A stretch of DNA of 64,000 nucleotides from Escherichia coli (GTDB lineage Bacteria; Pseudomonadota; Gammaproteobacteria; Enterobacterales; Enterobacteriaceae), in the NCBI GenBank assembly GCA_031701365.1, contig GCA_031701365.1_4118.1; one strand, written 5' to 3'. Under the pieces are notes generated by a model. That model did no database searches. It saw only the letters and a program-made list of their open reading frames with translations, and was not told where the DNA came from. How positions within the stretch are numbered: position 1 is the stretch's first letter; each line of letters begins with the position of its first letter. Below are positions 7,384 to 49,639 of the stretch, in pieces. The translations under genes were made by a program, and so were the position numbers.

Positions 7384-7476
7384 GTTTATATCAAAGGGAA
7401 TGCAGTGAAAGGAAAGACAGCATAATCGTACTCGTCACTGCGTTTCCACCCTTTTAAATTAATTAAGGAATTAACT

Positions 7477-8888: not shown

Positions 8889-9039
8889 ATAACAAAGAGT
8901 GGGAAGATTACCGCAAGAAGTGCCGAGAGTTTGATAAAGAACTCACAGGTACAGTGAACGCGGTAATGTGGGTATCTGCAATTATTTCAGTACTTGGTTT
9001 GGGTGCTATTATTATTAATAAATTATTCTAAGGACTAAT

Positions 9040-9240: not shown

Positions 9241-9758
9241 TGGATATTAATGAGTTGTTGAAATTAGTGTTTAATCGTGAACGCCGCGATACAAGACCAA
9301 TTGAATATCAAGATGTGATACGCATTGAAACTGATTTCTGTTATGGTAAAACAACTCATGATCTTTTGAATCTCTCTGGAAAACGATATGCTGATATTTG
9401 TTTTTCAGAGAGAAGTGATGGTTCAGAAATAACAAGTACTGATATTGTTTGTTACGCACGCAGTGCTGATAAATCTTATGAAATAGAACTTATATATTCC
9501 CCTAGTTCTAAAACAAATCATCACCGCCATATTTTATATGATGTTTACACACCACCTGGTATTGCTGAATATTTTGTTATTGATTATAGTACTGAAGAAA
9601 ATGTGTTTCAACAAAGTTTGATTCATAACTTTGAGGTGAATGATCCATTAGTACCAAAGTTGTTCAAACTACTTGACACCATCGATGTTGACTTTGAATT
9701 TGTTATGTGCATTAGAACTTCTTTATTCAATGAATTCATGGAACTTTTTAATATATGA
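9240..9758 (+). CDS. hypothetical protein
   Basis: 172-aa ORF, TAATG overlap. Confidence 0.6.
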   Translation: MDINELLKLVFNRERRDTRPIEYQDVIRIETDFCYGKTTHDLLNLSGKRYADICFSERSDGSEITSTDIVCYARSADKSYEIELIYSPSSKTNHHRHILYDVYTPPGIAEYFVIDYSTEENVFQQSLIHNFEVNDPLVPKLFKLLDTIDVDFEFVMCIRTSLFNEFMELFNI

Positions 9759-9976
9759 ATAGATACTATGTTGTGTATGAACACGTCTCTGAATTTAATA
9801 ACATACGCGGGTTTTCCAGAGTAGTCACCAAGATGGATGTATTCATTCGTGCTCTTAGTGAAGTAGATGCACTGTTTAAATTGTTTGATGAAATTACAAA
9901 GTATAACACACCTAAAACACACCGCTATGTGGAAACTGTACATTGCATTATGCTAACTGAAAGTGATGAGGAATGA
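9755..9976 (+). CDS. hypothetical protein
   Basis: 73-aa ORF, ATGA overlap. Confidence 0.55.
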   Translation: MNRYYVVYEHVSEFNNIRGFSRVVTKMDVFIRALSEVDALFKLFDEITKYNTPKTHRYVETVHCIMLTESDEE

Positions 9977-9979
9977 TAA

Positions 9980-10198
9980 ATGAATTTATATCTAGTTGAA
10001 GGTTTAGTACAAGTCTATAAACCAGAAGGTGAAGGTCAACGTTTTTCACACGTAGAAGAATTTAAGTACGTTGTACAGGCTGATGGTCAGTACGATGCGG
10101 AAATTCAAGTAGATGAATCATTCCGTAAGAAAAATGAAATTGGTAAATTTCAATACCAGAACTTACAATACAAAGTATGGCCTAGCATAAATGACTAA
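9980..10198 (+). CDS. hypothetical protein
   Basis: 72-aa ORF. Confidence 0.55.
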   Translation: MNLYLVEGLVQVYKPEGEGQRFSHVEEFKYVVQADGQYDAEIQVDESFRKKNEIGKFQYQNLQYKVWPSIND

Positions 10199-10406
10199 GA
10201 TGTGGTGGTGTCATGGTGTATATAACGTGTATGTAAATGGTAGATATAAAATGTCTAGTACCTATGCAAGACGTGTTAATGCGAACAACCAAGTTGATGC
10301 TGCCTGTGAGATCATTGAGTGGTATGCTGAGTTCAATGCACCTGACTATATGTACGAAATAGTTACAATAAATGTTGTACAAATCGATACATCTTTGATA
10401 CAATAA
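10191..10406 (+). CDS. hypothetical protein
   Basis: 71-aa ORF. Confidence 0.5.
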   Translation: MTKMWWCHGVYNVYVNGRYKMSSTYARRVNANNQVDAACEIIEWYAEFNAPDYMYEIVTINVVQIDTSLIQ

Positions 10407-10419
10407 CCACATCAAAAAA

Positions 10420-11100
10420 ATGCATATGAGGATACTTATGTTAGTTAATCTTAATTTCATCACTTCACCTGACTGGGCATTACGTGGGGTTTCTTTAAAC
10501 TTCAAGGAAACTATGTTTGATTACATTGGTGAGTGTACATTGGTAAATGCAACTTTTGACCCAAATCATCCGTTCTGGGCTGAAATTCATGATCCAACTG
10601 TAAACAACAATACATCTGTTATGACTATTGTCCAGACTAAACATGCAGGTATCCTTGCAGGTTATCGACCTGGACATGCAATTGAACACTTCACTGATTA
10701 CGATGTAGTGGATGAATACCCAATGATCCATGAAGATGGAAGTCTATACACATCTGAAGACTTCCGTGCTATCTTTAATAGTACTGATGATATTCTACCA
10801 AGTGGACGTCCACGTCCTGAGTCTTATCTTATGCATTCATCTTATGGTGTAGCAGATACGCTTGAACAGATTATGAAGAAGTACAAGAACCTAATTGAAG
10901 GTCCAGAAGAAATTGTCCTGTGCTATCACCCAGTACTGAAGTCTGAACAACCAAAGGATGGTGGATGGCGTTGGCATAAGAATGGTGATTATATTGGTAC
11001 TAAACGAAGTAAAGAACGTTTTGAGTACTTGTATGATGAACCAGATGTTGATGTGGTTTTGTGTTATAATTTTATTAAGGTGAAAAAGAAATGTATCTAG
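10420..11100 (+). CDS. hypothetical protein
   Basis: 226-aa ORF; an alternative start near 10513 has a better RBS. Confidence 0.55.
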   Translation: MHMRILMLVNLNFITSPDWALRGVSLNFKETMFDYIGECTLVNATFDPNHPFWAEIHDPTVNNNTSVMTIVQTKHAGILAGYRPGHAIEHFTDYDVVDEYPMIHEDGSLYTSEDFRAIFNSTDDILPSGRPRPESYLMHSSYGVADTLEQIMKKYKNLIEGPEEIVLCYHPVLKSEQPKDGGWRWHKNGDYIGTKRSKERFEYLYDEPDVDVVLCYNFIKVKKKCI

Positions 11101-11330
11101 TACTAAGTTTTGTTGTTGCACTATTGTTTATGTTTTATCCTACACTAGTAGCATTAGCCACTAAACGACCGATTGTAGATATTACTACTGTATTCTTGCT
11201 AAACGTGGCATTAGTACTGGTTTCTATTATCATTCCCGTGAGCTTTACTGTTATTGATATTGTGTCGGTATTACTCTTCGTAATCAGTTATCTTATGCTT
11301 ATTGAAGAAAAACCAGTTGACAACCATTAG
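11091..11330 (+). CDS. small membrane protein
   Basis: 79 aa, two hydrophobic helices. Confidence 0.55.
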   Translation: MYLVLSFVVALLFMFYPTLVALATKRPIVDITTVFLLNVALVLVSIIIPVSFTVIDIVSVLLFVISYLMLIEEKPVDNH

Positions 11331-11390
11331 TAGTACTGTATAATGGTTCCTGTAGTCTGAAACTTAACACTTAAACTTGAGGTAAAAAAT

Positions 11391-11717
11391 ATGCTATCAG
11401 TACTAATTTCAATTCCGTCTTTAATTCTGATTTGGCTTCTGGTTTACGAATGCTTTATTACTGATGATAATGATAAAAAAGAGTTCTCTGAGTTGTTTAT
11501 GCTTGATTCACCAATTGTACGTATTTTCTATACAGTCGTTGTGGTTTCAGTAATTGTATGGGTTTTGAGTTTTATCTTTCCACTCGGTGCAGTAGTTAAA
11601 ACTTTGGATTTGGTTGAGAACTTTGTTGCAATTATGTGGCTAATCAAAGCACTATTTGCAGGAAATGTTAAAATTTGGATTGATATTATCAAATTCAAGT
11701 TCACGAATAAGATGTAA
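11391..11717 (+). CDS. small membrane protein
   Basis: 108 aa, hydrophobic helices, RBS GAGGTAAAA. Confidence 0.6.
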   Translation: MLSVLISIPSLILIWLLVYECFITDDNDKKEFSELFMLDSPIVRIFYTVVVVSVIVWVLSFIFPLGAVVKTLDLVENFVAIMWLIKALFAGNVKIWIDIIKFKFTNKM

Positions 11718-11795
11718 CAGTCAAAATACCTCTATAGTATTAAATACTTCTGTACTATATATATGTACAGAAGTATTTCTCGTTAGAGGTTTGTT

Positions 11796-12155
11796 ATGAA
11801 AAGTTATATAAAATTAATAGCACTTGTGTGTGCATTATTTTCATGTTTTAGTTATGGTGCAGCAGCAGAAACATATTGTCGTAGTACTAAGGGAACGTGG
11901 CATGTATTGACTAACGACCCTAGAAATGGTAAAAATATAGTTGTTGATGGCGTGATTTATCGTTTTAAAGTAGAAAGTATTATTGGTAATAAAAAAATCT
12001 CGACTTATAGAGATGATTCTGGTACATTAGCAAACGTAATATTAATTGTAGACCCAAGAACTGGTAATGGTGATATCTATATAGTAATTTACTTGGACTC
12101 ATCGGTACGCCGTGACCTAGATATAGATAAATTGAACTTACACTGTGAAATATAG
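11796..12155 (+). CDS. putative secreted protein
   Basis: 119 aa; signal peptide ending SYGAAA; RBS AGAGG. Confidence 0.6.
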   Translation: MKSYIKLIALVCALFSCFSYGAAAETYCRSTKGTWHVLTNDPRNGKNIVVDGVIYRFKVESIIGNKKISTYRDDSGTLANVILIVDPRTGNGDIYIVIYLDSSVRRDLDIDKLNLHCEI

Positions 12156-12166
12156 GACTTAAAAAA

Positions 12167-12544
12167 ATGGTAAACACTATTTTACTTTTGTTGTTGAATA
12201 TTCCAATTATTCTGTCTTTTTTAATTTCTATTTTTATGGCAGGATATTGTTTAGTTGCAGTAATTCATTTTATTTTAACAAACAAATATGTCCTAATTTC
12301 TAAGCTTGATTCTATTTTTGCTTGCGATTCAATGGCTTATAACTTATGGTTAATTTGTTCTTGCATTATGGGAGTAACTTTCCTTCTGCATGTATTTGAT
12401 GTCCTTGACCAAAAGTTCGTATACATCAGTACTGGATTGGCACTTTATCCTGCTACGTGGTACTTGATTTACGTTGGTGATATATGGTATAGTACTTATA
12501 AAGAATATCAGCACAAGAAATCACTTAACGTTGGAGGAAAATAA
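12167..12544 (+). CDS. small membrane protein
   Basis: 125 aa, multiple hydrophobic helices. Confidence 0.6.
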   Translation: MVNTILLLLLNIPIILSFLISIFMAGYCLVAVIHFILTNKYVLISKLDSIFACDSMAYNLWLICSCIMGVTFLLHVFDVLDQKFVYISTGLALYPATWYLIYVGDIWYSTYKEYQHKKSLNVGGK

Positions 12545-12546
12545 TC

Positions 12547-12897
12547 ATGAAAACTATTTTATTTTTTGTATGTATGTTAATGTGTGGGTTGTCATATGCT
12601 GAACCATTAGAAGGTTTAGTTTGTACAGATGGTAATATTAAACATATCTATCAAGGTGATAGTGACGATAGAGATATTGTATATATTGATGGACAATCAT
12701 ATACGTTTGTTAAAGAGCATACAGTAGGCGACATTAGCTTCACTGAGTTTTCCAACGATACAGACCCTAACTTCTTAGCGTTTATTGAAGTAGATGTGTA
12801 TGAAGATAGTAATGGTACACAATATGCTAAATTAGTTATGATGCGTCGTGGTGCTAAAGAAACTAGTTTTGGTGGCTTGTGTAAATATAAGGATTGA
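12547..12897 (+). CDS. putative secreted protein
   Basis: 116 aa; signal peptide ending LSYA; RBS GGAGGAAAA. Confidence 0.65.
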   Translation: MKTILFFVCMLMCGLSYAEPLEGLVCTDGNIKHIYQGDSDDRDIVYIDGQSYTFVKEHTVGDISFTEFSNDTDPNFLAFIEVDVYEDSNGTQYAKLVMMRRGAKETSFGGLCKYKD

Positions 12898-12901
12898 TAT
12901 T

Positions 12902-13093
12902 ATGTTGATTTATCAAGGTGATAATATTCGTGTTATGCAGCATCCCTACTTACAAATCTTTGATGTGCAGCAGTATATGGAAGGTGATGACCCAAGAACC
13001 TATGGTCGTAAGTATGATTACTTCACTGTAAAGCAGTGTAAAAATATTAACGAAGTACGACAATTAGTTCAAGAACTTCAAAACAAAGGTTGA
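12902..13093 (+). CDS. hypothetical protein
   Basis: start moved to the internal ATG at 12902 of the 12848 ORF to avoid overlap. Confidence 0.45.
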   Translation: MLIYQGDNIRVMQHPYLQIFDVQQYMEGDDPRTYGRKYDYFTVKQCKNINEVRQLVQELQNKG

Positions 13094-13119
13094 CTTCGGT
13101 CAGCCTTTTTTGTTATAAT
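13088..13119 (+). terminator. intrinsic terminator fused to promoter (GGTTGAC-TTCG-GTCAGCC, T run, TATAAT)
   Basis: UUCG tetraloop hairpin plus T6; stem contains TTGACT, with TATAAT 18 nt downstream at 13114-13119. Confidence 0.75.
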
Positions 13120-13147
13120 TCTATTAATAAATTAGAGGATTTTAATT

Positions 13148-13588
13148 ATGTATGTATATCGTTTTGAACTTAAATTTAGTTACATCGAACCTGACTTAAA
13201 ACCAGCCCTAACTGTTGGCCCGTTTGCACGGTATTCAGCCAGATACAGTACTAAAAATGGATTTGACCGTTTGCTCATGACTACACCTTCTCAATTCCAA
13301 CCTGAACCAACTGAGGATGGGATCTATTCAATCAAAAGTGGATGGGTATTTGGCTGTCAAAGTTTGAAAGATTTGTTCAGATTCTTCACTATGGACTTAG
13401 GTAAATTGCATCGTGCTGGGTTTGCTATATCTGTATATGAAGTTCCAGACCACCATGTAGACATTGGTCGTAATCAAGTTCAGTACTATTGCGGTAGTGC
13501 TAAATTAGTTCGTATCATGTCAGTTAAGGAAGCAAAGGATGAGTTCCGACAAAGTAAAAGAGAAACAAATGAGGTAATATATGGATAA
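13148..13588 (+). CDS. hypothetical protein
   Basis: 146-aa ORF, RBS AGAGGA. Confidence 0.65.
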   Translation: MYVYRFELKFSYIEPDLKPALTVGPFARYSARYSTKNGFDRLLMTTPSQFQPEPTEDGIYSIKSGWVFGCQSLKDLFRFFTMDLGKLHRAGFAISVYEVPDHHVDIGRNQVQYYCGSAKLVRIMSVKEAKDEFRQSKRETNEVIYG

Positions 13589-13925
13589 AACTCAAATAGA
13601 ATTAAAGAAATTTGTTTCATTCTATCTTCCTGATGACCCACGTAATTCACAAAAAGATATTGAATATTATAATATCCTATCTAAACAGTTAATGAGAAAG
13701 TTTCAACAGTGTTTAACAATATTCAATACAGATGGAAGACGTAGATACCGAATCGTTTCAATGAATGATGAAAACGCAAATTTCTTTGATTACGATGTGG
13801 TTTTTAGAGCATATAATGATGATCGTATAAAATTAAATTATGATCAAATTATACTTGACCTGAATGTTATATGTGTTATAATCACTCACGTAGCCGAACT
13901 TAATGGTTTTAAAGAATGGTATTGA
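13581..13925 (+). CDS. hypothetical protein
   Basis: 114-aa ORF. Confidence 0.6.
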   Translation: MDKTQIELKKFVSFYLPDDPRNSQKDIEYYNILSKQLMRKFQQCLTIFNTDGRRRYRIVSMNDENANFFDYDVVFRAYNDDRIKLNYDQIILDLNVICVIITHVAELNGFKEWY

Positions 13926-13939
13926 ATAGAGGATAACAT

Positions 13940-14206
13940 ATGAAGCTTAAATTACAATATAATGGATTTACTTTACGTAATGATACTGAATTTATTAATC
14001 GTTCTCCTGGTGCTGAACTGTTTTTACGAGAGATGAACATTCCTTTCATCATTACTACAGTGGGCGACCGTGAAGTTCTACAATACGCAGAGCATCCGAT
14101 CATTGATGTTCCTTGGTACTCTGAGCATATGTACATGGATATGGCACGTCGCTACAACTGTAAGTTCGTAGTTGAAGGTGATAAAATTACAGTCGAATTT
14201 AAATAA
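13940..14206 (+). CDS. hypothetical protein
   Basis: 88-aa ORF, RBS AGAGGA. Confidence 0.6.
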   Translation: MKLKLQYNGFTLRNDTEFINRSPGAELFLREMNIPFIITTVGDREVLQYAEHPIIDVPWYSEHMYMDMARRYNCKFVVEGDKITVEFK

Positions 14207-14217
14207 GGTAAATTAAA

Positions 14218-14511
14218 ATGATCAGTACTTCAGTTAATGAAAGCATCGTCGCTGACGTAGAAATGGTTAAAGAATGTGCAGATGAAACTCTTCGTGATAT
14301 GTACATTAATGATTTAATTACTGAATACGGTAGTCGTGGTGTACACGAATTTATTCGTTTAAGTGGAGAGTTGATGAAAAATCGAATTCGTATGAAGCTT
14401 AACGTACATCCAAAAGCATGGGCATTTACATTAAAATACGCAGAAGATATTGTGAATTTGCGTCGAACTGAAGTATATGAACGTTTGCACAATGGTATGT
14501 TAGATAAATGA
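14218..14511 (+). CDS. hypothetical protein
   Basis: 97-aa ORF, RBS AAGGTAAA. Confidence 0.6.
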   Translation: MISTSVNESIVADVEMVKECADETLRDMYINDLITEYGSRGVHEFIRLSGELMKNRIRMKLNVHPKAWAFTLKYAEDIVNLRRTEVYERLHNGMLDK

Positions 14512-14530
14512 TTGTAAAATAGGAATTCTT

Positions 14531-14557
14531 AAATGAATTCCTTTTTGTTTATAAGGT
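14531..14557 (+). terminator. intrinsic terminator
   Basis: AGGAATTC-TTAAAT-GAATTCCT hairpin followed by T5. Confidence 0.7.
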
Positions 14558-14563
14558 ATAGTA

Positions 14564-14785
14564 ATGAAATATATAGTACTTGTACTGATATTATTCAGTA
14601 CTGTTGTAAGTGCTAAACAAAAAGAATATATTAAATGTATAAATTATGAAGAGAAATATGTTGAAACATATAAAAAAAGTATAATTAAAAACGTTTCGAT
14701 TACTAACAGAGCAACAATCATTGTACTTAAAAATGGGTTAATTATGCTATATAAACCACACGTTAAATGTGAAATTATTAATTGA
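14564..14785 (+). CDS. putative secreted small protein
   Basis: 73 aa with N-terminal signal-like helix. Confidence 0.55.
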   Translation: MKYIVLVLILFSTVVSAKQKEYIKCINYEEKYVETYKKSIIKNVSITNRATIIVLKNGLIMLYKPHVKCEIIN

Positions 14786-14792
14786 GGAAAAT

Positions 14793-15365
14793 ATGAATCG
14801 TAAAGGTCGTTTTAAAGTATCAAAAAAGAACAAAAGTTCTAGGTTTAAACCTATTGTTTTAACAGTTAAATCTAACAAAGAATTAACTGCACTTAGTAAA
14901 AAGATAATTTCATCTAAGATTGAAGTATCATACGTAAATTCATTAAAATATATGAATATAAAACCACTGGACAAACTCATTTCACTTATATTTCAGCGTA
15001 ATGATTTTGAGATATCAGTAGATGATTATAGAGCCTATAATGCTGGTTTCATTAATGTTACTTGTAATAAAAAGCTAACTGAGTTGGAAAACTTGTCATG
15101 TATAGTAAATCTAGATAAAGGTGTAGTGAAATACAATTTTGTACATTTTACTAATATTAATAATGGCATGGGTGTACAATCCAGACCTATAGTACCTACA
15201 TGTGATGTTACTAAATTAGCAAAGCTCAATGATGAAGAATATTTTCAAGAAAGTATTGTGACTGAGCATTTAGATGATATAATAGCTACTTACAAAGAGT
15301 GTATATGGGTTTTGAATGCTATAAAGCCTAAATTGTGTTTAATGAATATTGTTCGTGATTTATGA
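14793..15365 (+). CDS. hypothetical protein
   Basis: start set at ATG 14793 (RBS GAGGAAAA) inside the 14769 ORF. Confidence 0.55.
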   Translation: MNRKGRFKVSKKNKSSRFKPIVLTVKSNKELTALSKKIISSKIEVSYVNSLKYMNIKPLDKLISLIFQRNDFEISVDDYRAYNAGFINVTCNKKLTELENLSCIVNLDKGVVKYNFVHFTNINNGMGVQSRPIVPTCDVTKLAKLNDEEYFQESIVTEHLDDIIATYKECIWVLNAIKPKLCLMNIVRDL

Positions 15366-15378
15366 ATGGGGAATCGTA

Positions 15379-15822
15379 ATGAGTTGGGTAAATGTTAATA
15401 GTATTGAACTTAACGAACAAGATATTTTTGCATTTGTAAATTTAACCAATAATACAGTACTAAAAGGGCGTTTGTTCAGTGCGAGTGATGGATATAAATG
15501 GATCTCTTTGATGGATGATAGTGGTGTGATTTATAATGTAATGCAATTACCCCAATGGGTATATAGTAACACTGCCGACGATGTTCTTGCCGCAGTTATG
15601 CGTGAGTTTGAAAAACTCCCAGGTGGTGATATCAAAAACAAAGTTTTTAATGCAGAACGTAAAAATTATACAGCACAGCAATTGGAATCCCTTGCCATTG
15701 CTGCTTATCAAGCTGCTATTAAGAAGCCAGAGTGCGTTATTCTTAAGTATGTACCAGACTTAAAACTTACGTTGGAAGACATGGATGCATTCATTTTTAC
15801 ATCTGAACTTGATCAGTACTAA
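15379..15822 (+). CDS. hypothetical protein
   Basis: start set at ATG 15379 inside the 15349 ORF. Confidence 0.55.
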   Translation: MSWVNVNSIELNEQDIFAFVNLTNNTVLKGRLFSASDGYKWISLMDDSGVIYNVMQLPQWVYSNTADDVLAAVMREFEKLPGGDIKNKVFNAERKNYTAQQLESLAIAAYQAAIKKPECVILKYVPDLKLTLEDMDAFIFTSELDQY

Positions 15823-15937
15823 TTTAACTTTGGGACAACCATTCTTATTATGATATAATGTTTTATGTCATTCGATATAAATGACAACGGAACTATAAAT
15901 ATTATAGTAAAATTTATCTCTTATAGGAGTTATAAAA

Positions 15938-16321
15938 ATGGTTGATAAATGGAATAAGAAAGATCCATCACATGATGTTGATATTTCTGGTCTAGACAAT
16001 GCACATAAGCACAAGTATCTAGATTCACTAGGTCTTCTAAAACCAGACCAAAGTCTTGCACATGATCGTCCATCCCGTGAAAAAGCATTTAGCCTAGAAT
16101 CACTAGGTCATGAGCTTAATCGTGTGTTTGAGGATCACCCAATCTATGTACGTGATATTATCGAGAAACTTAAAGTAACTCCTAAAGAGCACTTTAAAGC
16201 AACAGTACACTCTGCATTCCGTGCATTGCATGATTCTCTCAAGAAAACTCACAATCTTCGTAAAATTCATGATGAAATCGTGAATGCAATCGAAAGTGAA
16301 AAACATAAGTTCAAGAAGTAA
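15938..16321 (+). CDS. hypothetical protein (shares YLDSLGLL motif with the 16566 gene)
   Basis: 127 aa, RBS TAGGAG. Confidence 0.65.
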   Translation: MVDKWNKKDPSHDVDISGLDNAHKHKYLDSLGLLKPDQSLAHDRPSREKAFSLESLGHELNRVFEDHPIYVRDIIEKLKVTPKEHFKATVHSAFRALHDSLKKTHNLRKIHDEIVNAIESEKHKFKK

Positions 16322-16327
16322 TAAAAA

Positions 16328-16354
16328 GGGGTTGACTAAGGTCAGCCCTTTGTT
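16328..16354 (+). terminator. intrinsic terminator (GGGTTGAC-TAAG-GTCAGCCC)
   Basis: variant of the recurring GTTGAC hairpin with T-rich tail. Confidence 0.65.
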
Positions 16355-16390
16355 GTATCATAACTTCTCAATATAACTGAGGTATCATAT

Positions 16391-16504
16391 ATGCAAGGTT
16401 TGAAATTTGTAGTTGCTGCACTCATCGCCGCAGTACTGGTTGGTGGTGTATTCTATGTAGTGGATCAAAAAGTAAATCCACCTGCACAAGAACAATCTAA
16501 GTAA
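16391..16504 (+). CDS. small membrane peptide (37 aa)
   Basis: not in ORF track; ATG 16391, single hydrophobic helix, bracketed by two terminators. Confidence 0.4.
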   Translation: MQGLKFVVAALIAAVLVGGVFYVVDQKVNPPAQEQSK

Positions 16505-16512
16505 CAAAATAA

Positions 16513-16543
16513 GGTTGACTTCGGTCAGCCTTTTCTTTATACT
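16513..16543 (+). terminator. intrinsic terminator fused to promoter
   Basis: GGTTGAC-TTCG-GTCAGCC plus T run, TATACT 18 nt after TTGACT. Confidence 0.7.
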
Positions 16544-16565
16544 ATAAATATAGACATAGAGAAAA

Positions 16566-17843
16566 ATGAAATCTATGGAGAGAAATCAAATGCCAAGTAA
16601 TTTTACTGATAAAAATGGTGGTAACATGGCTGGTCACTCGGATAAATGGAGTGAACGCAACCGCCGACCAAATAGTTATCAAGCAGGTCAAGGTTCACGT
16701 GGATCACGTAACCAAGGAACTGGTCTAGCTGGTAAAGCAAACGCAGAAGCAGGTGAAGTTAAGAGTACTGAGAACATGACTGAGCTAGAAAAGCTACGTT
16801 ATGTTAATTCATTGGGACTTCTTAATGCTACACAAAAACAACGCCTAGCTGATATGGAACGTGAAGAAAAAGAAAAGTCTGCTCCTGCGAAAGAAGAACC
16901 AAAACAAGAAGCACCAAAGGCGGTTAACCCTGTCAAAGAATTGTCTGATAAGTTAGGTAAGATTTTTGCTAATAAACCACAACTTATCCAAGGTATTGTG
17001 AAAGAATTGCAATCTGTACCTAAAGAAGAATTAAAAGTCAAAGCACAAGCTGTACTTGATGCAATGAGTGGAAATACCAGTACTGAACCAACTGAAGTAT
17101 TCAGTACTATAATGCGTGCACTTGAAGGTACACCACAAGGTGATGTGCCTTCACAAGAGGAAGTAAGTCTTGAAAGCGTACTTAAAACATTTGATAGTAT
17201 TGGTAAAGAAGACCGTGCTAATGCTCAACAAGTTAAGAATGTACTAGCTAAGTTAGAAAACCGTCTGGAAGGTAAAGACGATAAGATTAAATTAGTATCT
17301 GATGCAGTTAACGATGCACTTAAATCTTATGTACAAGGTGAAAAGAGTCGTTTTGTAACTGCAATGGATGCTGCATTCAATACTATGAAAAAGTATGAAG
17401 CTGATCATGGTGAGAAGGTTACACGAGATGGTTATCTGATGCGTGATGATGAAGAAGGTGCAGTAGAACAGAACGATGTTCATTCAGACGAAGAAATTGA
17501 TGACATGGAAGCTGAACTGTCACAAGACCGCCAAATGACTGAAAAATCCCATAACGAACTACAGAAATTAATGCAATGGGTTGCAGATGTTGGTGAAAAA
17601 GCTGGTGCTGATAAGAAGAGTATAAATCGAAATCTTAGTTGGATTAAAGATAAAGTTGGTAACAACGCTCGTAAACTACAAAAAGCGTGGACTGATGTAG
17701 TGAATGGTGCTGTTGACATTGATGTTGAATCCGGTGAGGCATATGATTATGCATTGACTACACTTGATGACTCTTTCCGTGATTACGAAAATGGAAATGT
17801 AACTCCTTGGGAAAAGGACATCATGAGCAAATACGGTAAATGA
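16566..17843 (+). CDS. hypothetical acidic protein with basic Gly/Ser-rich N-terminus
   Basis: 425-aa ORF, largest plus-strand gene; YVNSLGLL motif shared with the 15938 gene. Confidence 0.7.
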   Translation: MKSMERNQMPSNFTDKNGGNMAGHSDKWSERNRRPNSYQAGQGSRGSRNQGTGLAGKANAEAGEVKSTENMTELEKLRYVNSLGLLNATQKQRLADMEREEKEKSAPAKEEPKQEAPKAVNPVKELSDKLGKIFANKPQLIQGIVKELQSVPKEELKVKAQAVLDAMSGNTSTEPTEVFSTIMRALEGTPQGDVPSQEEVSLESVLKTFDSIGKEDRANAQQVKNVLAKLENRLEGKDDKIKLVSDAVNDALKSYVQGEKSRFVTAMDAAFNTMKKYEADHGEKVTRDGYLMRDDEEGAVEQNDVHSDEEIDDMEAELSQDRQMTEKSHNELQKLMQWVADVGEKAGADKKSINRNLSWIKDKVGNNARKLQKAWTDVVNGAVDIDVESGEAYDYALTTLDDSFRDYENGNVTPWEKDIMSKYGK

Positions 17844-17853
17844 TAAAACAAAA

Positions 17854-17878
17854 GGTTGACTTCGGTCAGCCTTTTTTT
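17854..17878 (+). terminator. intrinsic terminator (GGTTGAC-TTCG-GTCAGCC, T7)
   Basis: read directly. Confidence 0.75.
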
Positions 17879-17915
17879 GTAAATACAAAAGAGGAATTAA
17901 GAAGAGGGATTACAA

Positions 17916-18166
17916 TGAAAAAATATATTATATTTGGAATTGTATTATTTTCCAGTACTGCTTATGGTGCAGATTATCATTGCTCCGTAGCAAGGCAGGA
18001 TTTCAGAAATGGGGAGTTCTATACTACCTCATACACAAAAGGAATAATACACGACACCGACAGAACTATTGGATTTAATGCGTTTGACAACAAAGATTCA
18101 TATACTTCAGGTATACTATCTGAGCGTAAGACTGATGTAATGGGAATAGAAAAAGAGTTCCGGTGA
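17916..18166 (+). CDS. putative secreted protein
   Basis: start set at ATG 17916 because the 17840 ORF reads through the terminator; signal peptide ending STAYGA. Confidence 0.55.
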
Positions 18167-18176
18167 TTCCGTAGCA

Positions 18177-18500
18177 ATGTGCAATGACATTGAAAGTACT
18201 AAAACAATTTATTATAATAATGAACGTAACTATCGTTTTCATAATTTAACCACAAATAAAAGTTTACTATTTTACAATTGTAAAGAAGTAATACTCCCAT
18301 CAGACAATAGCTGTACTCCAACTAATCAACCCCCAGCACAATGTAATACTCCCTCTGAACCTGATAAAAATAAAAAAGACAAAGATAAAGATAAAAAAGA
18401 AGACAAAAAACCTTTAAAAGATAAAAAGAAAGATAAAAAACCTAATCCGTTTAAAAATAATAAACCAGCACAACCCGATATGACGTGTAAAATAAAATAA
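18177..18500 (+). CDS. Lys/Asp-rich low-complexity protein
   Basis: 107 aa with KDKDKDKKEDKK repeats. Confidence 0.5.
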   Translation: MCNDIESTKTIYYNNERNYRFHNLTTNKSLLFYNCKEVILPSDNSCTPTNQPPAQCNTPSEPDKNKKDKDKDKKEDKKPLKDKKKDKKPNPFKNNKPAQPDMTCKIK

Positions 18501-18509
18501 GGATATATA

Positions 18510-18929
18510 ATGAAAAAGATTTTTTTAAGTATTATTTTAGTACTTTTTAGTTTTAATGTATATGCAACAGATGCTAAACAGGTTGCAAATACAGTAAAAG
18601 ATGTTATAGTAGATAATGCTCCTACATTAGAGGAAATTGGGGTAAAAACTTGTGATATAGTAATATATAATTTAGTTAATGATGAACGAGTTATGTTGAA
18701 TACGTATGAACAAGTAGTCCCATTGGTTGAATCTGGTGATGCTTTTAGCTTTACATATAAAGTTAAATTAACAGGAGGGGTTGAAGTTAATCTTGACATT
18801 GATACCGCTTCAGTACTAAAAGATAAACTAGGATATGTGTTCAATCGTATTCGTGAAGAAGGTCATCTTAAGTATGTTTATGAAAGTAAAATACTAAAAC
18901 GTGCAATAGTTATAGAAAACTGTAAATGA
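18510..18929 (+). CDS. putative secreted protein
   Basis: 139 aa; signal peptide ending NVYA; RBS AAGGA. Confidence 0.65.
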   Translation: MKKIFLSIILVLFSFNVYATDAKQVANTVKDVIVDNAPTLEEIGVKTCDIVIYNLVNDERVMLNTYEQVVPLVESGDAFSFTYKVKLTGGVEVNLDIDTASVLKDKLGYVFNRIREEGHLKYVYESKILKRAIVIENCK

Positions 18930-18937
18930 TAATAAAA

Positions 18938-18969
18938 GGGTTGACTTCGGTCAGCCTTTTTTGTTATGA
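18938..18969 (+). terminator. intrinsic terminator fused to promoter
   Basis: GGGTTGAC-TTCG-GTCAGCC, T6, then TATGAT 17 nt after TTGACT. Confidence 0.75.
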
Positions 18970-18998
18970 TGTTGATATTAACTACAGAGGATAAAGTA

Positions 18999-19640
18999 AT
19001 GACTAAGCAAGAAATATTCAAAACTTTAATTGACATTTTGCGTCCATCAAAAACTCGTTGTGCGATGGAGTTTGATATTCCTTATGCTGAACGCGTAATC
19101 TTTCCACAAGTTAAAGCTGCTGGACTTACTTTGCTTGGAATGGGGATGTACTCTGTAGTAGTTGAACATAAAAACTATCCTGGGCGTGCATTTAAAGTAA
19201 CCACATCCCGTTGGGATGGTTTTCGTGCTTATGCAAAGTACTGCATTGAAAACGCAGGAACCAAGTTTCTTCCAGTGATCTACAGTGCAAACGAACAAGG
19301 AAACTTTGGATGGTATGAGATGGACAAGTACTATCCTATAATTAAACAAAAAAATAATTATGATGACTTTGTTAGTACTAAAATTGGAGATTTATATTCT
19401 TATGCACATGCTGGTCAGTACGCTACTTCAGTGAATGATATGCGTGGAAATTCTGAAGAGATTGCTATTGCGACGGTCGCTGCTAACATCATGAAAGAGT
19501 TTCACGGGCGTTTTGTACCAGACATTCATTCCAGTAATGTCATGATGGATAAAGATGGCAATGTATTCATTACTGATCCTCTTTCGTGTGATGTACGTAG
19601 AGAAATACCAGTTACTGAAGAAGATCCAGTTTTTTATTGA
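18999..19640 (+). CDS. hypothetical protein, possible kinase-like fold
   Basis: start set at ATG 18999 (RBS AGAGGA); DIHSSNVMMDKDGNVFITDP resembles a kinase catalytic loop and metal-binding segment. Confidence 0.5.
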   Translation: MTKQEIFKTLIDILRPSKTRCAMEFDIPYAERVIFPQVKAAGLTLLGMGMYSVVVEHKNYPGRAFKVTTSRWDGFRAYAKYCIENAGTKFLPVIYSANEQGNFGWYEMDKYYPIIKQKNNYDDFVSTKIGDLYSYAHAGQYATSVNDMRGNSEEIAIATVAANIMKEFHGRFVPDIHSSNVMMDKDGNVFITDPLSCDVRREIPVTEEDPVFY

Positions 19641-19701
19641 CAGAACTGATGTTCTGGTGTATTCTTAATAAACCATAAAAATTGCGGTAAAGGATAAAAT
19701 C

Positions 19702-19983
19702 ATGCGTTCATTTGAAAACTTAATAGGTAAGCATCTTTTATCTGAAATTGATGCAGACGTTAAAGAATTATCCAAATCAAAAAGTTACATTCATTTGGAT
19801 GAACTGTTTATTAAGTACGGTGAGATTGGTTTTAAGTCATTATTTGTTTTTACTATGAAAGTACATAGTTTAAAGTACTTCGATTTGAGTGCTAAAGATG
19901 GTGAACCGAATCTATATTACATGTATTACCTTAAGAACAAAGATGAAGCTAATACATTACTCTCTGAATATATATTGGGGTAA
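19702..19983 (+). CDS. hypothetical protein
   Basis: 93-aa ORF, RBS AAAGGA. Confidence 0.6.
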   Translation: MRSFENLIGKHLLSEIDADVKELSKSKSYIHLDELFIKYGEIGFKSLFVFTMKVHSLKYFDLSAKDGEPNLYYMYYLKNKDEANTLLSEYILG

Positions 19984-19985
19984 AA

Positions 19986-20324
19986 ATGGAACAATATTTT
20001 GAATTAATAAACAAAGTATCATTTTATGTAGTATCTTTGGTTTGGGTGTATTATATGTTTTGCTACATTATTGCATTCTTCCGATACACTACTTTATATG
20101 AACGTATCTACTATGATGCCCCAATTTCATTCTTGATGTTTTGTGCATGTACGTGGGGAATATTAGAAGTACTGATATGTGGGTATAGTACTGATGAATT
20201 AAATCTGGTATCGGTCTTGACTGGGTTTTCATTTGTTGTTATGATAGCTGCCGTTCCAGTATGGTTGTTCTTTGGACTAGTTCATCGCATTGATATATGG
20301 CGTTCTAATATCCCTGAAAAGTAA
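19986..20324 (+). CDS. small membrane protein, paralog family M (A1)
   Basis: 112 aa, 3 hydrophobic helices, C-terminal WRSNIPEK. Confidence 0.65.
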   Translation: MEQYFELINKVSFYVVSLVWVYYMFCYIIAFFRYTTLYERIYYDAPISFLMFCACTWGILEVLICGYSTDELNLVSVLTGFSFVVMIAAVPVWLFFGLVHRIDIWRSNIPEK

Positions 20325-20333
20325 GGATTTGTA

Positions 20334-20675
20334 ATGATTTATTACACTAACATGTTTGCCTATGCTGTTGCTTGCATTTACATTGTTTACTTCTTATTCG
20401 GTGGAGTACTGTGCTTCTTTAAGTACAAAACGTTGTTCAACCGAATGTACCCAAATCATCCAATTGTAGTTGTACTTTTGATTCTTTCAGTTTCTCAAAT
20501 AATCGTTGAAACTACAATGGGTATCAGTAGTGTACATTATAGTTTTGGTACTATAGTAATTATTACTATGCTTATTGCATACATTTTAGTACTTGGATAT
20601 GGTATCTTTGGTAATATTGGTATGAAAATGTATCATCGAATTAAAACATTACGTGATAATCTACCGGAGCGTTGA
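20334..20675 (+). CDS. small membrane protein, paralog family M (A2)
   Basis: 113 aa, C-terminal LRDNLPER. Confidence 0.65.
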   Translation: MIYYTNMFAYAVACIYIVYFLFGGVLCFFKYKTLFNRMYPNHPIVVVLLILSVSQIIVETTMGISSVHYSFGTIVIITMLIAYILVLGYGIFGNIGMKMYHRIKTLRDNLPER

Positions 20676-20676
20676 T

Positions 20677-21021
20677 ATGTATAATTTGAACCTAATCTCA
20701 TATATTATAACAACACTGTTTACATTCTATGCCTTTGTTGGTATAATCCTACTGTACTTTAAATTTTATAAAGTGTTTAACCGTTTCTATCCTTCAATGG
20801 AGAATGAGTTTTTCTTTGTGTTGTACGTAGGTTACACATTAATGGCTACATGTTTCACTGTAGCCGATGGTGTCATCGGCATTAAAACTGATTCCCCAAA
20901 TGGTAGTACGCTGGTTGCATTTATTCTTACCGGATTCCTTGCAACTTATATTGCCTTCATTACAACATGGTCAGTGGTTGAATTTCTCTTGCGACTACGA
21001 AAGAATATGCCGAATCGATAG
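20677..21021 (+). CDS. small membrane protein, paralog family M (A3)
   Basis: start set at ATG 20677 just after previous stop; C-terminal LRKNMPNR. Confidence 0.6.
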   Translation: MYNLNLISYIITTLFTFYAFVGIILLYFKFYKVFNRFYPSMENEFFFVLYVGYTLMATCFTVADGVIGIKTDSPNGSTLVAFILTGFLATYIAFITTWSVVEFLLRLRKNMPNR

Positions 21022-21030
21022 GAGACATAT

Positions 21031-21285
21031 ATGTTTGCATTGCGTAACAAAAACACTAAAGAATTATTATGTATTGATACCGTATGGGATTGTGCGGGTT
21101 CAACTACAGTTCTTGAAGAAGGAACTGGATATTGCGTGTTTGTTGTACATGATAGGAATGAACTCGAATTATTACTTGCTGAGTTCAATGCTGGTGGTAA
21201 TCCTAACAGTACTGAATACCCTGAGATTATCAATCCAGCACCTCCAGGTTCATATGAAATCCTACCACTATGGGTGTTGAAATAA
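21031..21285 (+). CDS. hypothetical protein
   Basis: 84-aa ORF, RBS TAGGAGA. Confidence 0.55.
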   Translation: MFALRNKNTKELLCIDTVWDCAGSTTVLEEGTGYCVFVVHDRNELELLLAEFNAGGNPNSTEYPEIINPAPPGSYEILPLWVLK

Positions 21286-21665
21286 TGCGACAAATGTACA
21301 AAGTAACCGAGCTAAACAAGCGTCTGGTTAAACAATCTATGTTTGAGGATAAAGAGTCTTACTATAACTTTAAACGTGCTGTAGAGGCTGCTATCCACAT
21401 CCAGAAGCTTAAAGAACGTGGTTGTATTATTCTGGAAAATGGTTCGGAAGTTGTAACGGATGACTTTAGTGTAGCGTTTGATGTTTCACCTGATGGGACG
21501 CTATCAATGCCCCGCTTAGGAACTGGAAACATGACTGTTTGGGTTGGCTTCACTATGGGGAATGTACCTGGTACTGTGTACGTAGATGATGCGGAATTGA
21601 AAGACAGTTTCAAAAACTTATCTTATCTTGAACCACAATACGCACATGAAATGAATTTATTTTGA
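21285..21665 (+). CDS. hypothetical protein
   Basis: start set at ATG 21285 (TAATG overlap) inside the 21270 ORF. Confidence 0.55.
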   Translation: MRQMYKVTELNKRLVKQSMFEDKESYYNFKRAVEAAIHIQKLKERGCIILENGSEVVTDDFSVAFDVSPDGTLSMPRLGTGNMTVWVGFTMGNVPGTVYVDDAELKDSFKNLSYLEPQYAHEMNLF

Positions 21666-47619: not shown

Positions 47620-49556
47620 TTAAACACATATAGACAGGGGAAGCTCCGTAGTGGAAGCATTATACAGGCTTTAACATATGTTGCATATGTTAAAATTCAG
47701 CCTGGACAAATGCGATCACTAGGATTCTCCCCAGGCTAAACCCCGTAATCATAGGTAGTCATAAGTAATCATATATAAACATTTATATGAGCACAGTAGA
47801 ATCACAGAATGATTATATATGATTCAGTACTGATTAGTATAGACAAGATTGCTCAAGAATGCACGGAAATGTGTGTGAATGATTCAGTACTGATATGCCA
47901 CTAAGTAGGCAGAGGAAGTCTGCCGTACTTTGTAGTTTCCAAGCTCCTTTTCCATTTTGCAAATTACATCAAATGTAATCAAAAGTAATCACGCAATGAT
48001 TAGTACTGAATTATTACTTTCACCTTAATTTCAATTACCCCTTGAGGCTCCAGCAAAAAGTTGGTTAGTACTCCATCCTAAATCTCGATCCTAAAAATTT
48101 TGGAGTACCTATGAAATAAAAGTTGGATCTTCGAAAGTTGAAATTTACGTTGGGACATATAGGATTTGTGGGATATAATGAGTTTTGTAGCGATACAGAT
48201 TATACGATTTCAGTACTGAAAGATGAAAGAAAGTTATTGACTTTATGATTCAGTACTGTATAATGTTCTACATAGGGTGATGAGTTGCTGCGAACAATTC
48301 ATTTACTCTACCTCCTGTCGTGAGACAGTACAGAAAAGATAGTTCCTCCTGTGGTGGTACATCTTTTTGAACCTCATATGAAAATTGTAATAACAGTACT
48401 GATATTAACAGAATGGTGTCAGTACTGATTTTAATCTAAAGCATTATGCCACCAGCTTGTGCTGGTGGATTCCCTCTAACAGTATTCAGTACTACATGAT
48501 GGTCTTCATCCTCCTAGGGTAACATAGTGAGGGCTATGATGGCAGTACTGAATACTCCCTTTCAAAAGATAGATCTATGGTATAGTACTGACGGATTTTG
48601 GGTGTAGTTACCCTGGATGGATTTTGGGCGTAGATATGTCTAGCCCTCCAGAAGTCTGGAAGTAAAGATGGCTATCCATCTAGACGGCTAAACGGCTAGA
48701 TTTCTGGATGGCTGGATGGCTAGACGTTTGGACGGCTAAACGGCTAAACGGCTAAACGGCTAAACGGCTAAACGGCTAGATGGTTACACGTCTGGAAGTA
48801 TAGACGGCTAAATCAAAATTTTATTTTGTTTTTTCCAATAGTTCCCCTACCGCGTGGGGATAGTTTCCCCGCAGTATCAGGAGTTAGATTTTTCTGAATC
48901 TGGAATTATTATCTTATAAACTGGGGGCAATGTCAACGGCCAGGACGGATATTTTTAAAATTTTTTCAGTACTGAATTTTGGGCGTAACTATGCACCCGG
49001 TGGGCTTGAGTCTTTCTCGACTTGATGGAACTATTATACAGTACTGAAAAAATAAAGCAATACCCTGGAAGCAAAAAAGTTTTAATTAATTTGCTTGCTA
49101 TCCTGGGCCGGACTATGGTACTATATTTCAGTACTGAGAAAGTGCGTTGACCTGCTAGGGTGCGGGAGTGTATCCTTTTTTTATATCTTGAATTTTGGGC
49201 GTAATTCCGCACCCCCTGGGGTATCCGCTTTCTCGCGTCTATGTAGTAATTATACGCTTTTTCAGGATCAAGTCAATACCTAAAAACAAAATAATTGAAA
49301 ATAATTTAATGCGTTTAAACGGCATGTAACGCCCTGGATTGTTGGGAGTGGGGCAAATGTATAGCTTAGGTGTATTAATGCGTTAGAATGCGTCTGAGGC
49401 CGTTTTACGGGGTATAGGGATGATTTGGTGGATTGATTCAGTACTGAATAATAGTACTACTATATAGAAAGATAGTTCCCCTGGATGGTTGCAGTACTGA
49501 ATGACAGTTCCCCTATATAGAAAGAAAACTATTTTAAAAGTACATGTAGAAAGTAC
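47620..49556. other. ORF-free region of about 1.9 kb, dense in AGTACT palindromes and short repeats
   Basis: no credible ORF on the plus strand; more than 20 copies of CAGTACTG-like palindromes; contains the tandem 8-mer array and GCACCCGGTGGG-type elements. Confidence 0.6.
48732..48779. repeat. tandem direct repeat (ACGGCTAA) x5 plus one degenerate copy
   Basis: five perfect 8-mers followed by ACGGCTAG; degenerate copies (GGCTAGAT, GGATGGCTGGATGG, GACGGCTAAATC) flank it from about 48610 to 48815. Confidence 0.85.
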
Positions 49557-49616
49557 TTGCAAACTATGTTTAAAGGCGTATAATGTTTTACATCGAGAGC
49601 GGGAACTCTTCCCGCT
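49557..49616 (+). promoter_or_regulatory. PeSL-like promoter plus 5' stem-loop
   Basis: TTGCAA, 16-nt spacer, TATAAT, then GTTTTACATC and hairpin GAGCGGGAACTCTTCCCGCT. Confidence 0.65.
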
Positions 49617-49639
49617 ACACTTTAAGAGAGATTAATACG

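Follow-up and report, generated by a model that had tools for sequence, protein, structure and literature searches.

A probable control region at the left genome end of an Asteriusvirus-type jumbo phage carries a long tandem array of MetJ-type boxes

A stretch of 64,000 nucleotides filed under an Escherichia coli assembly (GCA_031701365.1; hereafter 'the window') contains a gap of about 1.9 kb, at 47620-49556, that was annotated as free of open reading frames (ORFs). What is this gap for? The initial annotation had pointed to a tandem 8-mer array, AGTACT palindromes and GCACCCGGTGGG-type elements in it, and had offered a replication origin, a packaging or terminal-repeat boundary, a recombination hotspot and a cluster of small RNAs as candidates. 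We find that the gap is probably a conserved non-coding control region, straddling the left end of the genome of an Asteriusvirus-type jumbo phage.

Genome end in the gap

A megablast search with 47620-49556 against 50,697 phage records gave 42 matches, all of them jumbo myoviruses of the 121Q/PBECO4/G17 group (genus Asteriusvirus), with E. coli or Salmonella as hosts and 87-94% identity across the gap. On these matches, the source of the window is an Asteriusvirus-type jumbo coliphage (121Q/PBECO4/G17/fEgEco12 group). The identity range holds for every phage-collection record searched, suggesting that none of them is exactly the window phage.

The ends of the relatives were then placed on the window. 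Base 1 of fEgEco12, where the record reads AGTAGGCAGAGGAAGTCTGCC..., corresponds to window position 47904, and the window reads CCACTA/AGTAGGCAGAGG there (the slash marks the cut). The base equivalent to 47904 is the first in the records of fEgEco12, vB_Ec-M-J, BF17 and CRJP21 and, in reverse complement, the last in those of G17 and WPEC5. In fEgEco12, the same junction is also internal, where the right-hand repeat begins. The direct terminal repeat (DTR) of this phage, 20,993 bp, was obtained from PhageTerm and confirmed by restriction digests (PMC13070987), and its two copies are identical over the 20,993 bp. Record comparison gives 20,668 bp for the DTR of G17, equal to the PhageTerm value for Sharanji (PMC11895373), and the vB_Ec-M-J record annotates a DTR at 1..21525. 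Records above ~366 kb hold the gap sequence twice, ~20 kb from one end. Outside the genus, GAP32 and RaK2 have CCACTA at the corresponding site, RaK2 with 20 identical bases spanning the cut, and the records of CBB, Serratia BF, XbC2 and fENko-Kae01 begin right after this site.

47898..47909, plus strand: left genome terminus and start of the DTR; cut between 47903 and 47904, CCACTA/AGTAGG, from the ends of six records

Because the shared end of the relatives maps to 47904, the gap straddles the left physical end of the genome. By this mapping, 47620-47903 (~285 bp) is the tail of the unique right arm, preceding the right-hand repeat copy in the virion or in a concatemer, and 47904-49639 (~1.7 kb) forms a non-coding DTR leader, which precedes the first early gene. 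The DTR of ~20.7-21 kb would run rightward to a boundary near 68.6-68.9 kb on the window scale, beyond 64000, and the window would hold one copy. It weighs against this placement that the terminus is transferred from relatives only 87-94% identical over the gap, though at the cut itself the window is identical to the experimentally determined terminus of close relatives. Compared with the DTR ends of fEgEco12, G17, Sharanji and vB_Ec-M-J, the window has the same sequence across the cut (CCACTA/AGTAGGCAGAGGAAGTCTGCC...), the same ~1.7 kb to the first gene and the same order of modules. The packaging or terminal-repeat boundary among the early candidates is thus strongly supported, as the determined left end and DTR start of the relatives fall inside the gap, at 47904.

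The terminus call fixes the true genome start, which is useful for annotation and otherwise ordinary. The position of the DTR was already known for the relatives; the internal anatomy of the leader appears undescribed in the searchable literature, and none of the Asteriusvirus genome papers examined describes leader content.

Coding content and conservation

The first real gene most likely begins at ATG 49640, because an alternative ATG at 49583 sits within a TATAAT box and most relatives annotate the 363-nt version. This first DTR gene runs to a stop at 50002 and has the counterparts g01, EcMJ_001 and 121Q_266 in relatives. The non-coding stretch is therefore 47620-49639. As initially claimed, it is the largest ORF-poor stretch of the window, and this holds at ORF thresholds of 40, 50 and 60 aa. 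The part 47620-48954 is free of any ORF of at least 50 aa; further right, program-made ORFs of 85 aa (minus strand, 48955-49212), 62 aa, 59 aa and others are found. Seven of the seven mechanical ORFs of the gap are broken by stops or frameshifts across 10 aligned relatives, and coding potential of the gap was rejected, as no reading frame is kept among the ten. Public records annotate 1-8 hypothetical proteins each over 47620-49639 (e.g. fEgEco12 g614, JNE01, SD-15_S21, E9.1, WPEC5). These calls are probably spurious, because none of their frames is conserved among the ten relatives. A scan of the 64-kb window for tRNA and tmRNA found none.

Although non-coding, the gap is more conserved than its surroundings. 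With 10 Asteriusvirus genomes aligned, identity per 20-nt bin is typically 0.9-0.99 (about 0.93) in the gap vs 0.6-0.8 in the flanking small ORFs. The variable spots are a ~60-bp unit left of the cut, 48180-48200 and the perfect run of 8-mers. A recombination hotspot, as once suggested, is unsupported beyond the copy-number variation of two repeats.

The 8-mer array

Tandem Repeats Finder (TRF) confirmed the array, reporting (ACGGCTAA)x5.9 at 48732-48778 with period 8 and 100% matches, and this perfect run is embedded in a degenerate period-8 array at ~48666-48812. The operator of the repressor MetJ consists of tandem 8-bp met boxes with the consensus AGACGTCT (PMC4239095). Array units such as AGACGGCT, AGACGTTT, ACACGTCT and GGATGGCT, placed head to tail with an 8-bp period, carry the signature of such an operator. 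The array was scored with the published MetJ information matrix and thresholds (Augustus and Spicer 2011; PMC3228920). By this rule, a site has at least two adjacent 8-bp boxes, each scoring at least a quarter of the consensus score, and the site scores at least the consensus score (12.58). The 64-kb window has one qualifying site.

48666..48809, no strand assigned: 18 consecutive 8-bp MetJ-type met boxes, 133.3 bits, including the perfect run 48732-48778

In a control with 5.2 kb of E. coli K-12, the procedure found exactly the metJ/B (4 boxes, 31 bits) and metF (4 boxes, 25 bits) operators, and simulated windows gave at most 3 boxes. The array shares the 8-bp period and the head-to-tail boxes with the E. 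coli operators, every one of its boxes passes the published threshold, and its run GGACGGCT AAACGGCT ... AGATGGTT closely resembles the metF operator GGACGTCT AAACGGAT AGATGTGC. The base frequencies of 40 distinct phage boxes follow the published MetJ counts, including second-choice bases (r = 0.95). The length of the array varies by unit slippage, and the window has about four units more than most relatives; against the 12 boxes of G17, it has 18, the perfect AAACGGCT unit having expanded. MetJ is found only in Enterobacterales, Pasteurellales, Vibrionales, Aeromonadales and Alteromonadales (PMC3228920), and the hosts of 79 of the 80 array-bearing phage records belong to MetJ-possessing orders. 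We lean toward reading the array as a run of 18 tandem met boxes that the host MetJ would bind with its corepressor S-adenosylmethionine (SAM).

Several points weigh against MetJ as the ligand. First, the 40 phage boxes whose base frequencies were compared had been pre-selected with the same matrix. Second, position 6 is mostly G, where MetJ strongly prefers T. Third, a tandem 8-mer of random sequence would clear the per-box threshold in one phase or another with p = 0.12, and with p = 0.009 at the score of AAACGGCT. Fourth, a phage-encoded MetJ/Arc-like protein may be the one that binds. Fifth, XbC2 has a 14-box array (8+4+2, at 648-775), yet it was reported from Xanthomonas, and the Xanthomonadales have SamR in place of MetJ; either its natural host is a different one, or the array can do without MetJ.

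Even if MetJ binds, the array is not an ordinary operator, because it has 18 boxes vs 4, no met gene is near and the nearest promoter is ~90 bp away. That promoter (48936 to 48908, leftward) reads towards the array, which begins ~90 bp downstream and does not overlap it. The metJ/B and metF operators differ in just these respects and in position 6. When its position was checked against that of MetJ operators (in a methionine-regulon promoter, usually no more than ~75 bp from the start codon), the array was found elsewhere. We found no prior description of MetJ in connection with phages in a literature search that covered few subscription journals.

As the array is far too long for an operator, overlaps no promoter and is present twice per genome, it would most likely act as a sink, a roadblock or both. 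As a sink, it would titrate MetJ while phage DNA accumulates, derepressing methionine/SAM synthesis of the host. As a roadblock, it would set a SAM-dependent protein block on transcription between the leftward promoters and the genome end. A further option would be a T5-like hold on the DNA during entry.

Arrays in other phages

Distant blastn searches with the array reached all Rak2-like genera, a few hundred bp from the record starts, and also matched T5-like phages of Vibrio, Aeromonas and Providencia as well as phiKT-like podophages. Among the relatives, the met boxes number 12 in G17, 7+4+4 in 121Q, 7+4+2 in CBB and GAP32, 4+4+3 in Serratia BF, 9+2 in fHe-Yen9-04 and 8+4+2 in XbC2. In the podophage PGT2, 9 boxes occupy 38-109 of the terminal repeat (260 bp) and are found at both ends; Pontus, a T5-like Vibrio phage, has 15 boxes. 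In Providencia phage PSTCR5 and in a 118.5-kb IMG/VR contig, a DnaA box lies beside nine near-consensus boxes (AGCCGTCT AAACGTCT GGACGTCT ...; 85-88 bits). Arrays of near-consensus boxes (GGACGTCT, AAACGTCT) are found in the T5-like phages of Providencia and Vibrio and in the DTR of PGT2.

RaK2 and fENko-Kae01 have no met-box array. At the same place they carry clusters of Fur-box-like sites instead, 7 and 5 of them vs 0.2-0.3 expected. The interchange of MetJ-type and Fur-type arrays suggests a common job for arrays of host-repressor sites.

The Fur-box-like clusters are at 1299-1440, 1585-1610 and 1817-1835 in RaK2, at 711-800 in fENko-Kae01 and at 554-615 in T5, within its injection-stop region. 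Sites of this type (GAGAATGATAATGATTCTCATT) match GATAATGATAATCATTATC at 14-17 of 19 positions. Serratia BF and fHe-Yen9-04 have one Fur-box-like site each, between convergent promoters. In Pontus, about eight copies of GAATTTGCACCT, related to the T5 repeat GTGCAAATCCGAC, occupy 150-470 and 700-790, and TTATCCACA DnaA boxes are on both sides of the met-box array, so that three types of modules sit together.

We tentatively conceive, as one possibility that may well prove wrong, that non-coding regions within or close to the terminal repeats of unrelated virulent phages (Rak2-like, T5-like, phiKT-like) are landing pads for metabolic repressors of the host. The 18-box MetJ 'super-operator' would be evolutionarily interchangeable with the Fur-box arrays of RaK2, fENko-Kae01 and T5, and in T5-like phages it would have DnaA boxes next to it. 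With two copies per genome, multiplied further as the phage DNA replicates, such arrays would titrate the repressor and turn on the methionine/SAM (or iron) supply of the host. Alternatively, they would couple early transcription or DNA entry to the SAM or iron status of the host.

In a different scheme, modeled on T5 injection, MetJ (elsewhere Fur or DnaA) on the arrays would pause DNA entry, and the ~21 kb repeat would express its early genes first. We regard such a stop as unlikely. The terminal repeat of T5 includes an untranslated region of ~1.7 kb, dense in repeats and conserved among relatives, whose DnaA boxes were proposed as the stop (bioRxiv 10.1101/866236). The gap is likewise kilobase-sized, ORF-free, dense in repeats and palindromes, conserved and inside a long terminal repeat, reaching the repeat boundary; both regions are more conserved than their neighboring genes, and both have arrays resembling sites of host regulators. 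The T5-like Vibrio and Providencia phages have the same met-box arrays next to DnaA boxes, and Fur-box-like repeats are common to the T5 region and the leaders of RaK2 and fENko. However, the T5 region is at the far end of the repeat, after the pre-early genes, and the gap is at the near (left) edge, upstream of the early genes. For a stop there, the right end would have to enter first, delivering the early genes promoter-last. Neither DnaA boxes (TTWTNCACA), single or paired, nor Fur boxes were found in the window gap, and the literature examined has no report of two-step entry for these phages. A 41-nt match to the T5 region (83% identity, E = 0.005) is too weak to be used for direct homology, which was set aside; the overall sequence similarity is negligible.

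The left end of T7 offers another comparison. It has a fixed end and an array of short repeats, followed by strong host-type early promoters before the first gene. The window shares the fixed end, the short-repeat array and predicted host-type promoters, and the T7-like podophage PGT2 has its met-box array 38 bp from the end. On the other hand, the T7 repeats are 7-mers of different sequence and irregular spacing, its terminal repeat is 160 bp rather than 21 kb, and it is not known to have leftward promoter units.

The array of the leader, of a type bound by host repressors, exceeds the two scored E. coli MetJ operators four- to fivefold in length. Several genera have kept it, similar arrays are found near the genome ends of phages from unrelated families, and sister genera have Fur-type arrays in its place. 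Should MetJ bind, phages would have a simple means, open to testing, of sensing or rewiring the methionine/SAM metabolism of the host, and the dense repeats of the T5 injection-stop region, long unexplained, would become more accessible to study.

Promoters and module order

The array is one of a series of modules along the leader, which are listed from left to right.

48068..48108, no strand assigned: inverted repeat GTACTCCA-N25-TGGAGTAC, read from the sequence
48150-48179, plus strand: predicted sigma-70-type promoter TTGGGA-18-TATAAT, consensus score 10/12
48237-48264, plus strand: predicted sigma-70-type promoter TTGACT-16-TATAAT, consensus score 11/12
48449..48468, no strand assigned: hairpin CCACCAGC-TTGT-GCTGGTGG, read from the sequence, no T-run after it
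48595..48632, plus strand: two copies of the 12-mer ATTTTGGGYGTA (starts 48595 and 48621), directly upstream of the array
48838..48875, no strand assigned: overlapping GC hairpins CCCC-taccgcgt-GGGG and GGGG-atagttt-CCCC after a T-rich tract, identity 0.86-0.99
48908..48936, minus strand: predicted sigma-70-type promoter TTGACA-17-GATAAT, 11/12, reading towards the array
49120..49183, plus strand: possible extended -10 promoter TGgTACTAT with a short transcript; poor -35, found by eye; converges on leftward unit B (see below)
49557..49639, plus strand: predicted promoter AGTAC-TTGCAA-16-TATAAT (49557-49584, consensus scan) and 5' leader of the first DTR gene

The number of promoter matches in the region (9) weighs against reading them as promoters, as it is not above that of shuffles (7.8 ± 3.3). 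We relied on conservation across genera for this reason, and promoters were accepted only where both position and orientation are conserved. Close to perfect by consensus are those at 48237-48264 and 49557-49584 on the plus strand and at 48936 to 48908 and 49276 to 49249 on the minus strand. Besides those of the leftward units below, transcription starts are predicted near 48186, 48271 and 49591 (plus strand) and near 48901 (minus strand). The left-end leaders of CBB, GAP32, Serratia BF, XbC2, fENko-Kae01 and RaK2 were compared. Across them, the order is genome end, AAATTTTGGAGTACC inverted repeat, strong rightward promoter, ATTTTGGGYGTA, 8-mer array, T-run with CCCC/GGGG hairpins, convergent promoter pair and first-gene promoter.

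The individual modules were traced as follows. The inverted repeat at 48068..48108 is 93% identical to positions 86-128 from the left end of fENko-Kae01, and its core AAATTTTGGAGTACC is also found in CBB, Serratia BF and GAP32. In all related genera, a promoter close to consensus reads rightward at a distance of 270-780 bp from the left end, and the corresponding region 48150..48264 has an identity of 0.92-0.96 in the Asteriusvirus alignment. The hairpin at 48449..48468 is an annotated terminator in G17 (-16.5 kcal) and is retained in fENko-Kae01 with the loop TTAA. The 12-mer ATTTTGGGYGTA has 4 copies in the 64 kb (48595, 48621, 48976 and 49192; 0.0 expected), all in the gap and on the plus strand, and one copy precedes the array in CBB, GAP32, Serratia BF and fENko-Kae01. 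A homologous TTCCATTAG.TCCCCTTCCGCG follows the array in CBB, GAP32, BF, XbC2 and RaK2, and the promoter reading from 48936 to 48908 recurs in fENko-Kae01 at the homologous place, 921 to 893. The possible transcript from 49120 would end at 49157-49183, where a weak hairpin and a T7 run are terminator-like; the homologous place in CBB, GAP32, BF, XbC2, fENko and RaK2 has a strong rightward promoter.

In other genera, ATTTTGGGYGTA is kept beside the array and within the leftward units, and it was matched to no binding protein or signal. A sigma-54 reading of ATTTTGGGCGTAA-N-GCA was dropped, as the -12 GC is absent, by eye, in fEgEco12, in XbC2 and in the two copies upstream of the array.

With these modules, the sigma-70 RNA polymerase of the host would read the leader early in infection. 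Transcription of the small early genes in the repeat would start from the rightward promoters, and short structured RNAs made from two or three leftward promoters would converge on the rightward transcripts. By RNA-seq, PA5oct, a distantly related jumbo phage, was found to need host RNA polymerase and to transcribe its DTR genes strongly early on, and two abundant non-coding RNAs (ncRNAs) map within its DTR (PMC7318152). No prior description of promoters in Asteriusvirus was found, again in literature with few subscription journals covered.

Promoters facing both ways could also belong to a replication origin resembling those of T4 and T7, in which leader transcripts would serve as primers or give R-loops and an initiator would bind to the repeats. 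AT-rich tracts, many hairpins, the high conservation and a local minimum of the cumulative GC skew at 47-48 kb are in line with this. However, the turn of the skew coincides with the minus-strand genes at 31.5-43.7 kb and with the compositional change at the repeat boundary. There are zero DnaA boxes in the gap, the repeats are 8-mers, 10-mers and 12-mers rather than iterons of 17-22 bp, and the 8-bp array matches a repressor operator. An origin, the first of the initial candidates, thus lacks specific support, the skew turn being explained by gene orientation, and we consider it quite improbable.

Leftward promoter-hairpin units

The GCACCCGGTGGG-type elements singled out at first are real. 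They are two copies, both in the gap, of a ~70-nt unit.

48976..49060, minus strand: leftward unit A; predicted promoter TTGCTT-16-TATAAT (49060 to 49033; 9/12, by eye), predicted start near 49026
49192..49276, minus strand: leftward unit B; predicted promoter TTGACT-16-TATAAT (49276 to 49249), predicted start near 49242

In minus-strand order, each element consists of TATAAT, ~7 nt, ATAGAC, a 3-4 bp stem with a GAGAAA loop, and ACCCC..GGGGT; it is predicted to be the transcribed start of a leftward unit. After its start, unit A has the hairpin AGTC-GAGAAA-GACT (49022 to 49009), then CCC-ACC-GGG and TACGCCCAAAAT. Unit B has the hairpin CGC-GAGAAA-GCG (49237 to 49226), then ACCCC-A-GGGGGT; a long stem with 49157-49168 and a terminator at 49108 to 49045 are possible. 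The RNA of unit B may terminate at an imperfect hairpin and U-run near 49045, at ~195 nt. This promoter-plus-hairpin arrangement occurs in the 64 kb only as the two gap copies, which converge on the rightward promoter that is strong in other genera and weak in the window.

Fourteen distinct copies of the unit, from six genera, can be aligned. In helix 1, three pairs each change on both sides in 5 of the 13-14 sequences, with nearly zero unpaired cells, as the variants CGC/GCG, AGTC/GACT, GGAG/CTCC, CGG/CCG and CGA/TCG illustrate. Its cells are paired in 82% of cases vs 23-48% with the partner slid, and the covariation score was attained in 0 of 500 shuffles. Helix 2 hardly varies, showing a single compensatory change, and a helix 3 was not supported in the alignment. 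With such comparative support, these units are the second candidate element of the leader.

A cluster of small RNAs, as initially listed, is therefore plausible though unproven: the leader has two conserved predicted units that read leftward and one or two that read rightward, and one hairpin shows covariation. Could the gap be mainly a cluster of small regulatory RNA genes, its position at the genome end being incidental? The conservation of the leftward units and their covarying hairpin in six genera would fit, as would the abundant ncRNAs in the DTR of PA5oct (PMC7318152) and predicted RNAs folding well below shuffles (z = -4.2, for unit B, and -4.7), but palindromes inflate such fold scores. 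The RNA of unit A is not unusually structured (z = -0.9), and an Rfam 15 scan of 47000-50200 with E up to 1 matched no family beyond a chance-level miRNA hit (E = 0.49). The units span <500 of ~2,000 bp, conservation is highest in the blocks on either side of the cut, and the array is a DNA-level feature. The chance that small RNAs are the main content of the gap is very slim.

As a lead only, the leftward units recall boxB of lambda nut and put of HK022. They share with these a short GC stem and a purine-rich loop (GAGAAA) a few bases past an early promoter, a second small hairpin that follows, and a stem that covaries around a conserved loop. They differ in having a stem of 3-4 bp and a loop of 6 nt, vs 5 bp and 5 nt, and in pointing to the genome end with no genes downstream.

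Elements around the cut

Five elements surround the cut between 47903 and 47904.

47670..47694, plus strand: AT-rich hairpin TTTAACATATG-TTG-CATATGTTAAA, after the last small ORF of the unique right arm, read from the sequence
47700..47780, no strand assigned: conserved block on the unique side of the cut, identity 0.93-0.99 per bin in 10 Asteriusvirus genomes
47821..47895, no strand assigned: variable ~60-bp unit bounded by TGATTCAGTACTGAT palindromes, adjoining the cut on the left
47904..47929, plus strand: terminal inverted repeat AGTA-GGCAGA-ggaag-TCTGCC-GTACT, hairpin-forming (stem 47908-47924), from genome base 1
47975..47991, plus strand: two more 10-bp-phased GTAATCA repeats on the DTR side of the cut, identity 0.95-0.96

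The stem of the hairpin at 47670..47694 is kept via compensatory changes, because fEgEco12 has TTTAACAATT-agaag-AATTGTTAAA at the same place. The conserved block contains an inverted repeat GCCTGG...CCAGGC and three 10-bp-phased GTAATCA/GTAGTCA repeats at 47745, 47755 and 47765 (TRF: period 10, 47745-47773), from which we infer that it is a candidate recognition site of the terminase. The ~60-bp unit is the least conserved part of the gap (identity 0.61-0.77), with CAGTACTG at 47825 and 47885. RaK2 and GAP32 have 3-5 AGTACT sites directly left of CCACTA. The terminal inverted repeat is invariant in 9 sequences, and fENko-Kae01 starts with an analogous TATCTTCT-ctgtata-AGAAGATA.

The terminase would recognize conserved sequence around the cut and cut there, generating the left end. 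Candidate sites for this recognition would be CCACTA itself, the hairpin at the terminus, the phased GTAATCA repeats that flank the cut and the CAGTACTG palindromes left of it.

The ~60-bp unit has three tandem copies in slurp01 and is rearranged in fEgEco12, UE-S1 and CMSTMSU.

AGTACT palindromes

The gap has 18 copies of AGTACT, which the initial annotation had pointed out. Their presence there stands, but they are not special to the gap, as the signal is window-wide: the 64 kb contain 252 copies vs about 21.8 expected, an 11.6-fold over-representation. The next 6-bp palindrome is only 2.3-fold over-represented, and several GC-rich ones do not occur at all. Per kb, AGTACT has 9.2 copies in the gap, 8.3 in other intergenic sequence and 3.0 in coding sequence. 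Only the extended form CAGTACTG is locally enriched, at 6.1 vs 1.6 per kb (~4-fold).

SlmA sites (the 12-bp palindrome GTGAGTACTCAC) were rejected as an explanation: AGTACT is their core too, but 238 of the 252 copies agree with the full palindrome at only 6-8 of its 12 positions, and C rather than G adjoins the core. No prior description of AGTACT in jumbo phages was found in the literature covered, which included few subscription journals. The context of the palindrome (copies are, for example, at 47826, 48212 and 49440) is symmetric, T.CAGTACTG.A. AGTACT is frequent in the left-end leaders of CBB, GAP32, Serratia BF, XbC2 and RaK2, and it often abuts a -35 box (AAAGTACTTGAC).

Neighboring genes and composition

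The initial contrast between an AT-rich left part and a GC-richer right part is real yet modest, with a GC step from 0.347 (40000-47903) to 0.382 (47904-64000). On the minus strand, ten consecutive ORFs of ~300-430 aa, which may be tandem paralogues, occupy 31562-43661. They are the sole long minus-strand block of the window and account for the negative GC skew at 31-44 kb. On the plus strand, ~18 back-to-back ORFs, mostly of 59-69 aa, fill 43989-47619 in a run that ends at the gap. The GC skew is negative over this run despite its plus-strand genes, unlike the plus-strand genes right of the genome end.

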